Shown here in pieces: positions 3,123-11,538 of a DNA stretch of 18,018 nucleotides. Every line of letters starts with the position of its first letter. Within the stretch, counting starts at the first letter, position 1. The translations under genes and the position numbers were made by a program. This DNA comes from Methanobacterium sp. (lineage in GTDB: Archaea; Methanobacteriota; Methanobacteria; Methanobacteriales; Methanobacteriaceae). Location: NCBI GenBank assembly GCA_003166335.1, contig PMWA01000061.1, positions 1 through 18,018 of the forward strand, in the 5' to 3' direction. The notes beneath the pieces were generated by a model. It was given only the letters and a program-made list of their open reading frames with translations. It ran no database searches and was not told the origin of the DNA.

Positions 3123-4583
3123 CTATCCTTCGATTGATTTCGTAAACTCATTCAACTTATTCTGAAATTCATTAAGCTTAGTTTCATATTGGGTTTCAGT
3201 TTCTTTTTTTCTTTTTTCATAAAGTATTTTGTCATTTTCAGATATAAATTCTATTTTTTCATTTATTGGTTCAAGCATTCTTTTATAATAATTTATTCTA
3301 TCCTCATAAAAATTTATTTTCATTTGATTGTAATAACTAATAATCTTATGATCATTTGCAGCCATTATACTAATTCTTTCAATATCCAATTCGCTCTTTT
3401 GCTCAATTAGTACCCTTCGCTTATTGAAATCTTCTTTAAGAGTAGCTTCTGAAATTTGAAGATCGATTTCTAGTATTTGCATATCAATCTCTTCCTTAGC
3501 ACTAATACGGTTATTTAAAGCTTTAAATTGATCTGATTGTTGATTTAACTGTGCTTGTAATGCTAGATTTTCTTTTTTTATTTTTTTTACATCTTCATGT
3601 TCTATAGTAATTGTTTCTGTAGGGTTAATTGTTATGTGAGGTAAGTATTGGATGTAAACTTTTTTCAAATCATCTCGTCTTCCCAAAAAATATGCGTCCT
3701 TTATCTTGTTCGATATTTTATGACCCATGAAAAGTTCTCTAATCTCTTCTGGCATCCCTGCAATTGTCAATTGGGTGTTGAACCATTTCCTACACATATG
3801 TCCTGTGATCTTTCTGAAAGTGTTACCTCCCTTATCCCACCCTAATTTATCGTTTATCCTTTTGTAAATGTAACCTATTCCTTCTGACTTAAAAGGTTGA
3901 TCATTAGTTGTATGTTGAGTAAAAAGAGGTTGATTATCTTTTAAGTTTCTTCTTTCAGTCTTTAAATAAGTTTTTATAGCATTAACAGCTTCTGGAGACA
4001 TATATGTTATAAATTCTATTTCAATCTTTTCCCTAACTAAAGATAATGAACACAAATCATTATCATCTAATCCATCCTTGAACTGCCCAACACTAAGATT
4101 ACAAACATCAGAATTGCTCAAACCGCTTGAAAGCTGTGTTAGTATGATGGCTTTTTGCTTTATAGTATTACAAGCATCTAAAAATATCTTAATATCTTCT
4201 TTTGATGGTAATTCACGATTGTTTGCTATACGGAATGATCGAGGTTTTCTTTTTGTAGGTTTAGGAGTCTCAATTTTATTACAATTAAAAAAATTAAGAA
4301 TTAAACCTCTTCTCAAATTCCTAGTTGTTCTTGCCCTATCAATTGATATACAATGATCATCATATTTAGGAAGCCATGAATTGATACTTTGATCCCAAAA
4401 AGGCAGTTCTTCTCTTTCTTTATTACATATCTCCAATATTTCATCCGGCGTTTTTTCAATTGCTATACAAAAATCTGCTAAAGCATAAAGATATTGAACT
4501 TTGGCATTATCAGTAAGTCCATATATCCAGTTTTGAAAAACATGATCCTGTTCAACAATCTTCACCATTTCATTCATTTTCAT
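3123..4583 (-). CDS. Tyrosine recombinase/integrase with long C-terminal coiled-coil extension
   Basis: Box I AIILTQLSSGLSNSDV, K186 (REK), H262-x-x-R265 (GHMCRKWF), MGH288 and Y298 (DAYF). The last roughly 160 aa are charged and helical. Confidence 0.9.
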   Translation of the reverse strand: MKMNEMVKIVEQDHVFQNWIYGLTDNAKVQYLYALADFCIAIEKTPDEILEICNKEREELPFWDQSINSWLPKYDDHCISIDRARTTRNLRRGLILNFFNCNKIETPKPTKRKPRSFRIANNRELPSKEDIKIFLDACNTIKQKAIILTQLSSGLSNSDVCNLSVGQFKDGLDDNDLCSLSLVREKIEIEFITYMSPEAVNAIKTYLKTERRNLKDNQPLFTQHTTNDQPFKSEGIGYIYKRINDKLGWDKGGNTFRKITGHMCRKWFNTQLTIAGMPEEIRELFMGHKISNKIKDAYFLGRRDDLKKVYIQYLPHITINPTETITIEHEDVKKIKKENLALQAQLNQQSDQFKALNNRISAKEEIDMQILEIDLQISEATLKEDFNKRRVLIEQKSELDIERISIMAANDHKIISYYNQMKINFYEDRINYYKRMLEPINEKIEFISENDKILYEKRKKETETQYETKLNEFQNKLNEFTKSIEG

Positions 4584-9827: not shown

Positions 9828-10409
9828 ATGTCAAATTCTCTGGATCATATTTGAACAATTTTATGCCAAAGATCGCCGAGAATGGCGCCAATGGCTAAGA
9901 GAACATCATAACTCTTCTCCTGGAGTATGGCTCATTTATTATAAGAAAAACAGCGATAAACGCGGGTTGAGTATGAAGAAGCAGTGAAAGAAGCACTTAG
10001 CTTCGGCTGGATCGATAGTAAATCCAAAGTTCTGGATGAAGAACGCTACATGCAAGTATTCACTCCCCGAAAACCAGGTAGTGCCTGGTCAAGGTCAAAT
10101 AAAGAGAGAGTCAAAAAACTTGTCAAAAATGGTTTGATGAAACCAGTGGGACTAGTAAAGATCGATGCCGCCAAAAAGGATGGTTCATGGACTATTCTGG
10201 ATGATATTGAATATCTGGTGATTCCTGATGATTTAAAGAATATATTAGATAAAAATAAAGCAGCTAATGAGAATTTTGAAGCTTTCAGCGATTCAGCTAA
10301 AAAGCAGGTACTTTACTGGATTGATAATGCCAAAAAGAAGGATACTAAGCTGCTAAGGATTAAAAAAACTGTCGAATTCGCAGCAAAGAATAAAAAACCC
10401 TTTAATTAA
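9828..10409 (+). pseudogene. YdeI/OmpD-associated (bacteriocin-protection) family gene with two frameshifts
   Basis: MSNSLDHI / EQFYAKDRREWRQWLREHHNSSPGVWLIYYKKNSDK / RVEYEEAVKEALSFGWIDS...FTPRKPGSAWS. One extra base near 9850-9852 gives TGA at 9852 and one base is missing near 9958-9962. ORF 9984..10409 is only the C-terminal part. Confidence 0.85.
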
Positions 10410-10500
10410 TACATTTTAAGTTCGATATTGCGTATGGGAGAATAATTAAAGCATCAGAAAATTTCAAGGATATAATCAAAACAAAAGTTTATATGTCATT

Positions 10501-10655
10501 GGTTTACTGCTTGGTTGGCGTAAACCGGCCCGTCAGACCTTAAACTGCAATAGCAGGCCATCCAGAAATAAAGATAAAAATACTATCTCATATGATATAT
10601 ACATTGCAGGTATGACGGATGGATTAAATGCCCTGAAATACCCGATAATCCTTAA
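10501..10655 (+). ncRNA. Candidate structured non-coding RNA, family unassigned
   Basis: BRE/TATA AAAAG-TTTATATG (TATA 10488-10495) with no ORF downstream. Stems: CCGTCA/TGACGG, CTGCAAT/ATTGCAG, AGATA/TATCT, GGATTA/TAATCC, plus a 5' hairpin. Confidence 0.55.
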
Positions 10656-10723
10656 ATTTTACCATACTAAAGAATTCTATGATTAAATCCAATTTATTTC
10701 TTACAAAAAAAATATTCTACTTT

Positions 10724-11482
10724 TTATAAATCTTTTAATTCTTCTATATTAACATCCCTCACTCCATCCAACTTCTCACCATGAGAAATGTTAAAAATGG
10801 TTACATTTTCATTACTAGCCAACCATTCCACCAGTTTTTTAGCATACTTAAGCTTCAATAATTTTATTTCATCAGCCTTACCCAACTTAGTATCCATATC
10901 CGGCCTTGAATATTTAGTGACCATCCTTCCAAAATCCATGCCCGCTAAAATAATATATTTTACACCTAATTCCACCGCGAAATATAATGCACGGTCTCCA
11001 TCAGTAAAACCACCGAAATTATAAACATTCCCAAGTGGAGTGCTCTGAGTGGTTCCTAAAACCCGCTTTAACCTTGGAAAATATTCATTTATCTTATCTA
11101 AATTATTACCGTGAGCATGCACCACTAAAAAAGAACCATCCCTGTTAGCCTGTATAATATCCTCCATTTTACCATCTAAATCCGTAACTATAATATCCGG
11201 TGTTATATCATCCTCTAAAAGTGCAGTTGTAGCCCCATCAGCTGCTATAAGCGTGAAATTTGATAAGTTTAAATTTTTTAAATCTTTTATATTCCCTTTA
11301 AGAGAGGGACCCGCCCCAAAAACTATAACCCTATCCTTAATAGGGATATCGTCCGGTGATAGACAATTTGAAGATTCTAAAAGTTTATTTAATATTAATG
11401 CCGATTTTTCATCATCATCTCTACTGAAACCTAATTCTTCTAGTATTTCTTTATACCATGAAAACCATATAACAAGGTTCAT
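10724..11482 (-). CDS. mptE: 6-hydroxymethyl-7,8-dihydropterin pyrophosphokinase MptE (methanopterin pathway)
   Basis: GAGPSL, AADGA, PDIIVTDLDG, VHAHGNN, NFGGFTDGDRA and GMDFG motifs. Likely start is MNLVIW at 11482. Confidence 0.92.
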   Translation of the reverse strand: MNLVIWFSWYKEILEELGFSRDDDEKSALILNKLLESSNCLSPDDIPIKDRVIVFGAGPSLKGNIKDLKNLNLSNFTLIAADGATTALLEDDITPDIIVTDLDGKMEDIIQANRDGSFLVVHAHGNNLDKINEYFPRLKRVLGTTQSTPLGNVYNFGGFTDGDRALYFAVELGVKYIILAGMDFGRMVTKYSRPDMDTKLGKADEIKLLKLKYAKKLVEWLASNENVTIFNISHGEKLDGVRDVNIEELKDL

Positions 11483-11538
11483 ATAGATAAGATAGATACT
11501 CAATACAAATAAAGTTAATTAACTTGGAGGTTTTTTAG

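Follow-up and report, generated by a model that had tools for sequence, protein, structure and literature searches.

The non-coding stretch between ydeI and mptE in this Methanobacterium genome is very probably a relic of a virus-derived cassette. It holds the conserved core of a dispersed viral unit which bears a terminase gene and lacks an integrase, and the chances are even that this core acts as a structured leader RNA read from the minus strand. The element is real, constrained, and new both to Rfam and to the literature searched, while its function as RNA is unproven.

Results

Setting of the Element

The window, meaning the whole 18,018-nt stretch of DNA analysed, is contig C81 of a 2.49-Mb genome (G000). 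The flagged stretch sits between the rightward ydeI/OmdA ORF and the leftward mptE (Table 1). In the assembly, ydeI is apparently frameshifted near its 5' end (window positions 9829–9984); the metagenome locus L186 has the intact form of 194 aa. About 6 kb away from the element, at 3123–4583, is a lone tyrosine integrase gene (Pfam Phage_integrase, E 7e-11).

Table 1. Features of the flagged stretch and its flanks, in window coordinates.
Feature	Position	Strand	Basis
ydeI/OmdA-family ORF, host flank	9984..10409	+	Pfam OmdA, E 4.9e-17
A/T tract, read as BRE-TATA by the earlier note	10470..10494		sequence
Conserved 72-nt cassette block, putative leader-RNA core	10494..10565	- (putative)	78 copies, constraint, provirus homologues L100 and L269
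AU-rich linker, shortened in the window copy	10566..10590		copy alignment
Second conserved (3') block, ATATACATT..GTATGAC	10591..10625 (approximate)	-	in 70/78 copies
Decayed cassette tail	10626..10696		window +97..+201 aligns to L160 +175..+281
mptE, host flank	10724..11503	-	Pfam MptE-like, E 3.7e-34

An earlier note on this DNA had proposed a stand-alone RNA gene here. All the motif strings it listed are present where it placed them (among them AGATA at 10572–10576 and TATCT at 10584–10588). The tract of higher GC content that it described exists and is only mild, with 32–35% against 28–29% on both sides in 200-nt windows. Its view that the RNA would be neither a tRNA nor an SRP or RNase P RNA is upheld: ARAGORN calls no gene in the window, and Rfam has no match over 10483–10660 at E ≤ 5. 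The same Rfam scan lends no support to the HgcC or H/ACA guide families that were suggested. The stretch is a conserved non-coding element outside Rfam, and it is not a stand-alone gene; it is an internal part of a multi-copy, terminase-bearing cassette.

Copies, Insertion Sites, and Distribution

BLAST and profile searches revealed three paralogues of the stretch in G000 (E 1e-13 to 1e-15), giving four copies in this genome. With a covariance model built on 30 copies, 78 copies were found in eight of 19 congeneric genomes (4, 3, 19, 16, 14, 3, 12, and 7 per genome); the remaining 11 genomes have none. Every copy consists of the 72-nt block and an AU-rich linker of variable length, mostly followed by the second block. 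Indels of 1–3 nt in the loops of the block break the reading frame, and the element is therefore non-coding.

The sites are intergenic. Neighbouring genes are unrelated between sites and stand in both orientations, so a riboswitch serving a single pathway is ruled out. Different species have several insertion sites in common. The earlier note had proposed to collect homologues beside mptE. No element follows mptE in G109, G046, G027, and G152, and the element next to mptE is thus an insertion.

A pattern search across GTDB returned 32 loci, 29 of them from Methanobacteriaceae; the other three are bacterial, lie within coding sequence, and were rejected. In 151 genomes of the family, matches outside the genus number only three and are weak. 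The weak model match L102 is within a coding gene and was discarded together with its near-identical twin L101. Seven further weak model matches comprise five coding and two intergenic ones. The latter (L297 in G144 and L294 in G204) are outside the genus and have E values of 0.01–0.03, possibly by chance. Three DNA patterns had no match in IMG/VR, and blastn against PLSDB and INPHARED gave short chance matches only. Beyond the window, Rfam scans of 10 loci gave nothing relevant, with no match at E ≤ 3 in L100, L185, L267–L269, L070, or L074. The element is undescribed in the literature searched, and published tables of predicted archaeal ncRNA motifs or repeats could contain it.

Structure and Decay of the Cassette

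Homology between copies at different sites spans about 300–550 nt leftward and at least 300 nt rightward. The full-length cassette is about 3.9 kb. Its fullest copy is the metagenome locus L185. There, the left motif is followed by the DUF8136 gene, which points leftward, then by the block and genes B and C, and lastly by the gene for the terminase large subunit (TerL) of 522 aa. The homology of L185 stops after the TerL stop codon. The left end of the cassette is composed of AGTAATACTT repeats around three TAAGG units in an 11-bp phase. The 3' block or the left-end motif is tandemly duplicated in L114, L113, L062, L052, L120, and L181.

The leftward small gene encodes DUF8136 (PF26457) of 76–98 aa, predicted to form a two-helix hairpin (pLDDT 89). 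The predicted structure has no viral fold match at E ≤ 0.001, the sequence has no notable match in PHROG or the PDB, and none of 44 candidates in IMG/VR was confirmed. Among the 19 congeneric genomes, the DUF8136 gene and the left-end motif are confined to the eight that contain the block. The left motif is kept in 56 of the 74 copies with enough upstream DNA, a translated DUF8136 match in 14, and an intact DUF8136 gene in eight.

TerL is present in L160, L141, L163, L169, and L185, and the cassette has no other large genes. The TerL of L160 matches phrog_38 (E 9e-46). In IMG/VR, the cassette TerL has one distant match (25%); its DNA is about 76–77% identical to the TerL gene found, in the same genomes, in islands of the integrase-MCM-TerL type. 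No integrase, replication gene, or transposase was found in the long forms of block-bearing cassettes.

Islands of about 8 kb (L165, L167/L168, L171, L172, and L180, in G063, G159, G100, G117, and G131) contain a tyrosine integrase, an MCM helicase, a small gene, a 165-aa gene, and TerL, without head genes, and their homology ceases just past the TerL stop. These islands may be archaeal satellites and could serve the cassette as helpers.

The block is absent upstream in all 23 loci around DUF8136 homologues. The genus g19 has the layout of left motif, DUF8136, and gene B without the block; in L209–L212 and L228, the left-end motif flanks DUF8136 and a gene B homologue. The left-end motif is also seen without the block in G000 (C116:10150–10330, C114:3400–3550, C30:12491 and 15659, C37, and C1).

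Short copies revealed neither a target-site duplication nor a defined right end. Their right ends are ragged, and the left-end motif was not found there in inverted form. The empty sites in G000 are too diverged for reading a duplication. The motif GGTTGTCATATAATGTG occurs six times in G000 with up to two mismatches, several times beside cassette relics (C11, C33, C37, C46, C50, and C114). It was rejected as an attachment site or cassette end, as it is near only eight of the 78 copies, on either side.

In full cassettes, the A/T tract stands between the block and the ribosome-binding site of the leftward DUF8136 gene. In the window copy, the DUF8136 gene and the left end of the cassette are deleted beside this tract. 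The orthologue in G063 has likewise lost the left end and the genes, and the linker is shortened in both. The span from GTC to TATGACR is 123 nt in the window copy, compared with about 200 nt in most copies. What the window copy retains is just the two blocks and the alignable decayed tail.

Constraint on the Block

Divergence from the consensus was compared in copies from five genomes. At G/C columns, the block has a value of 0.089 and the left motif one of 0.085, and the 3' block follows with 0.113; the linker reaches 0.31, and linker and flanks taken together range over 0.19–0.31. At A/T columns, it is 0.04–0.08 in the conserved parts against 0.16–0.17. The block is under constraint, since its divergence is about 3-fold below that of the flanks. 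The window block is identical to four orthologous copies at 70/72, 66/72, 66/71, and 66/72 positions (92–97%), while the third codon positions of mptE between the same lineages are 72–84% identical.

Many copies carry helix-breaking changes and deletions, as would be seen in a neutral relic whose GC-rich part only seems conserved or is kept uniform through gene conversion between paralogues. Such a relic is highly improbable: the linker, flanks, and DUF8136 pseudogenes next to the block decay 3–4 times faster at G/C columns, and the block is more conserved than the coding sequence of mptE between species. The block likely stays under selection after the cassette genes are lost, judging from these comparisons.

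Conservation alone does not indicate an RNA, because the phased TAAGG left motif, which is like a DNA site, is equally conserved. The main rival to the leader RNA is a DNA-level cis site, such as an operator array, an origin, or a packaging site for a protein of the cassette or virus, with the stems being incidental. In the terminase unit, three islands are conserved to the same degree, among them the block and the phased 11-bp repeat, and short motifs are repeated in the block (GTCA three times and ACTGC twice). The spacing between these motifs, however, varies by several bases. Besides, the block persists in the window and G063 lineages without the left end or genes. Mobility cannot select the block in these two lineages, because the left end and all the genes are gone.

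Pairing and Covariation

The fold and switch of the earlier note turned out to be traits of the window copy only, since the six helices are complete in 1–10 of 64 aligned copies. The 5' hairpin GGTTTAC/GTAAACC is complete in four and its alternative GGTTGG/CCGGCC in seven. For the long helix, CCGTCA/TGACGG is complete in 10 and CTGCAAT/ATTGCAG in one. The pseudoknot or switch CCATCC/GGATGG and the 3' stem GGATTA/TAATCC are each complete in one.

Other pairings recur in the same copies. GC-AATA-GC is complete in 60/64, TGGT/GTCA and GGC/GCC are each found in 57/64, and GACC/GGYC is found in 45/64, with one pair broken in the window copy. The long-range pairing of TGTCAT (10494–10499) with ATGACR (10612–10617) is complete in 52/64. 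RNAalifold, together with pair counts, yields two small helices, in which two pairs covary.

Folding of the region was compared with dinucleotide shuffles. The z score is −1.14 for the plus strand (30 of 200 shuffles as good) and −1.55 for the minus strand (16 of 200). The block alone has no excess, with mean z scores of +0.34 (plus) and +0.60 (minus) over 38 copies. On a tree of the 78 distinct copies with 19 proposed pairs, 61 substitution events keep the pairing and 55 break it, and there are four double changes. In a shuffle test, two covarying pairs were reached by 230 of 500 shuffles, and the variety of pair types was below that of every shuffle. Conservation of the sequence is far beyond chance, and covariation among copies is weak.

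The missing folding excess and the weak covariation speak for a DNA site. Against it, the homologues in proviruses retain pairing while their sequence changes. When L100 and L269 of the genus g18 are included, five cells are changed on both sides, and none of 500 shuffles equals this. Loop lengths differ by 1–5 nt between copies, which suits an RNA better than a protein site with fixed spacing. With both sides considered, the DNA site is somewhat unlikely. The evidence on whether the block functions as RNA is evenly poised.

A leader RNA would probably be read from the minus strand. At G-C pairs on the 78-copy tree, C>T and G>A changes are nearly equal (25 vs 27), and thus no strand signal is seen. 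At A-U pairs, A>G changes exceed T>C changes, 17 vs 8. This bias and the long-range TGTCAT/ATGACR helix favour the plus strand, against the minus-strand model. They could belong to a small plus-strand RNA of about 125–210 nt, closed by this helix and started from the upstream A/T tract. The closing helix recurs in two elements of g18, L267 and L268, as GTCAT/ATGAC and GTCGT/ATGGC, and the wobbles fit the plus strand; these elements, however, otherwise share little with the block. A TATA-like octamer begins 11–20 nt before GTC in 46 of 76 copies (7 nt before the edge in the window), too close for a transcript to include the 5' strand of the helix, and it may be the promoter of DUF8136. Also because RNA contigs run in from ydeI, the plus-strand RNA is quite unlikely.

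Promoter-Like Motifs and RNA Data

The TATA box proposed in the earlier note (TTTATAT, 10488–10494) abuts the conserved 5' edge, where GTC begins at 10495. A start at 10513–10518, as suggested there, would therefore exclude conserved sequence. No RNA-library contig from four runs begins at these positions, although contigs show neither ends nor strand. On the minus strand, the A/T tract is a U-rich run past the block, and it is a possible terminator.

The minus strand of the 3' block resembles an archaeal TATA box. It reads NWAAW-KTATAWA in 51 of 70 cassette copies, in an AT-rich context and counted without a shuffle control. In the window, the TATA-like part is present and the BRE-like part is mismatched. 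This TATA-like motif aligns with the leftward promoter of L100, and ATGACG of the same block can pair with the 5' TGTCAT.

On the minus strand, the 3' block could also encode a leader peptide of 16 residues. A 16-codon frame from ATG to TAA is open in more than half of 28 copies examined, but it is broken or startless in the window, its G063 orthologue, L062, L047, L054, L056, and others. No ribosome-binding site is evident, and such a peptide is scarcely credible.

Part of the stretch is contained in six RNA runs from five studies. Contigs from four runs (10376–10526, 10429–10610, 10313–10563, and 10249–10534) enter from the ydeI side across the proposed TATA. Their depth is about that of their neighbours, and DNA carry-over is possible. 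The contigs, which give neither strand nor ends, show no discrete RNA. A depth peak over the block of L185 was rejected as a sign of expression, because a DNA run has the same peak; it is a pile-up of paralogues.

Homologues in Proviruses of the Genus g18

L100 is a diverged homologue of the block in a methanogen provirus of g18. The leftward Bro-N gene about 120 nt downstream of it opens a long early operon of small leftward genes. A good leftward BRE-TATA is located further upstream of the block homologue. L100 keeps both small helices, and two pairs are changed on both sides, from A-U to G-C and from C-G to U-A. L269 has the second hairpin only, at the same position upstream of leftward genes.

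Long hairpin-rich regions precede leftward operons at L100:1560–1660, at about 1380–1600 of L267/L268, and at L269:1400–1600, all in mobile elements of g18, and contain exchangeable modules. They are candidates for further viral leader RNAs and have no Rfam match.

Discussion

In the favoured model, the block is transcribed from the minus strand, folds, and controls termination. A promoter in the 3' block would initiate a transcript, which would traverse the linker and the 72-nt block and then the U-rich tract ahead of the first gene. The first gene is DUF8136 in the cassette; in the provirus, it encodes a BRO antirepressor. Whether transcription stops or continues at the U-rich tract would depend on the folded block. 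Once terminated, the short RNA could affect related elements in trans, in the way of the CI RNA of satellite phage P4. Such an effect would account for the retention of the block by hosts after gene loss. A role as RNA remains the best reading of the flagged stretch, with its transcription and fold being putative. An immunity role in trans, similar to that of CI, is rather unlikely.

In P4, the CI RNA arises by processing of an untranslated transcript, and its pairing with seqA and seqC causes premature termination (PMC4825925). Like P4 CI RNA and the seqA-IsrK leader, the block is non-coding and lies before the first genes of a viral or satellite operon, with a terminator-like tract. Based on the TATA-like motifs, it would lie inside the transcript of the leftward genes. 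Unlike P4 CI RNA, the block resides in an archaeal host, in up to 19 chromosomal copies, with no sequence likeness shown. A search of the 3'-block side found no flanking antisense target pair like seqA and seqC; the complementarities of the block to the 3' block are only the 6-bp TGTCAT/ATGACR and the 5-bp GCAAT/ATTGC.

The C4 antisense RNA of phages P1 and P7 precedes an antirepressor operon. Similarly, L100 precedes an antirepressor-type Bro-N gene. In G000, G100, G017, G071, and G084, nothing matches the C4 model (RF01695) at E ≤ 10.

PICI-like satellites have one or more packaging genes without head genes, together with their own integrase, a replication module, and a small terminase subunit. 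The cassette resembles them in having TerL without capsid or portal genes. DUF8136, with its predicted two-helix hairpin, was considered as a possible small terminase subunit. Unlike them, the block-bearing cassette has no integrase or replication module, which are seen only in separate islands such as L165, and it is present at dozens of sites, mostly reduced to non-coding parts. A preprint on archaeal satellites names only two earlier ones, both of spindle-shaped viruses (bioRxiv 10.1101/2025.02.15.638363).

The copies are like MITEs in being numerous, intergenic, non-coding, and lineage-restricted, with empty sites in relatives. Unlike MITEs, they have ragged ends and a long form that bears a terminase gene, and neither terminal inverted repeats nor a target duplication nor a cognate transposase was found. 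A likeness to hairpin, twister, or hammerhead ribozymes, to dif/loxP sites, or to IS200/IS605 RNAs was rejected, as key motifs or any Rfam match are lacking.

Racrs are virus-borne solitary CRISPR repeats behind a promoter (PMC10651486). The block is also associated with viruses, lies behind a promoter-like motif, and partly resembles a host repeat, and it could be a mimic of this repeat acting as an RNA anti-CRISPR against the host type I system. The block consensus and the CRISPR repeat of G100 and G117 share TCAGACCATA (10 nt; reached in 5 of 2000 shuffles), and six of eight positions match the 3' handle. The likeness, however, covers only 16 of 30 repeat positions, not near the full length of the repeat. 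In what was a post hoc comparison, 190 of 5000 shuffles align with at least the same score, as do 1256 of 8328 genome windows (15%). Moreover, G000, G063, and G017 yielded no repeat of this type, and the conservation of the block reaches well past the repeat-like part. Such mimicry is very unlikely.

No convincing match to the cassettes or islands was found for 213 CRISPR spacers of G117 and G100; there are two AT-rich matches of 20–22 nt only. Over 22–29 nt, several spacers of G117 match the contigs C36, C16, and C17 of G000 in part. G000 has a short remnant of a CRISPR array at C13:8534–8688, whose repeat is unlike that of G117 C6 and G100 C54. The element thus lacks at least one defining feature of each of MITEs, PICI-like satellites, C4, and Racrs.

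For annotation, intergenic ncRNA candidates of this kind in these methanogens are cassette relics, not single host genes. The cassette itself poses a puzzle: a terminase unit that has neither an integrase nor a transposase has come to occupy dozens of chromosomal sites, and its genes are outlasted by three short non-coding islands. If the block is a leader RNA, it would be a candidate for a switch of termination or immunity at the RNA level in an archaeal virus. In the literature searched, such control is described only for bacterial phages. A further step, which is doubtful, is that the block is a domesticated leader RNA of an archaeal virus and that up to 19 relics per genome, each a promoter plus RNA, silence related viruses or terminase-bearing satellites in trans. 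If true, this would be superinfection immunity by RNA only in methanogens, spread by an integrase-less cassette with an undescribed mechanism of mobility.
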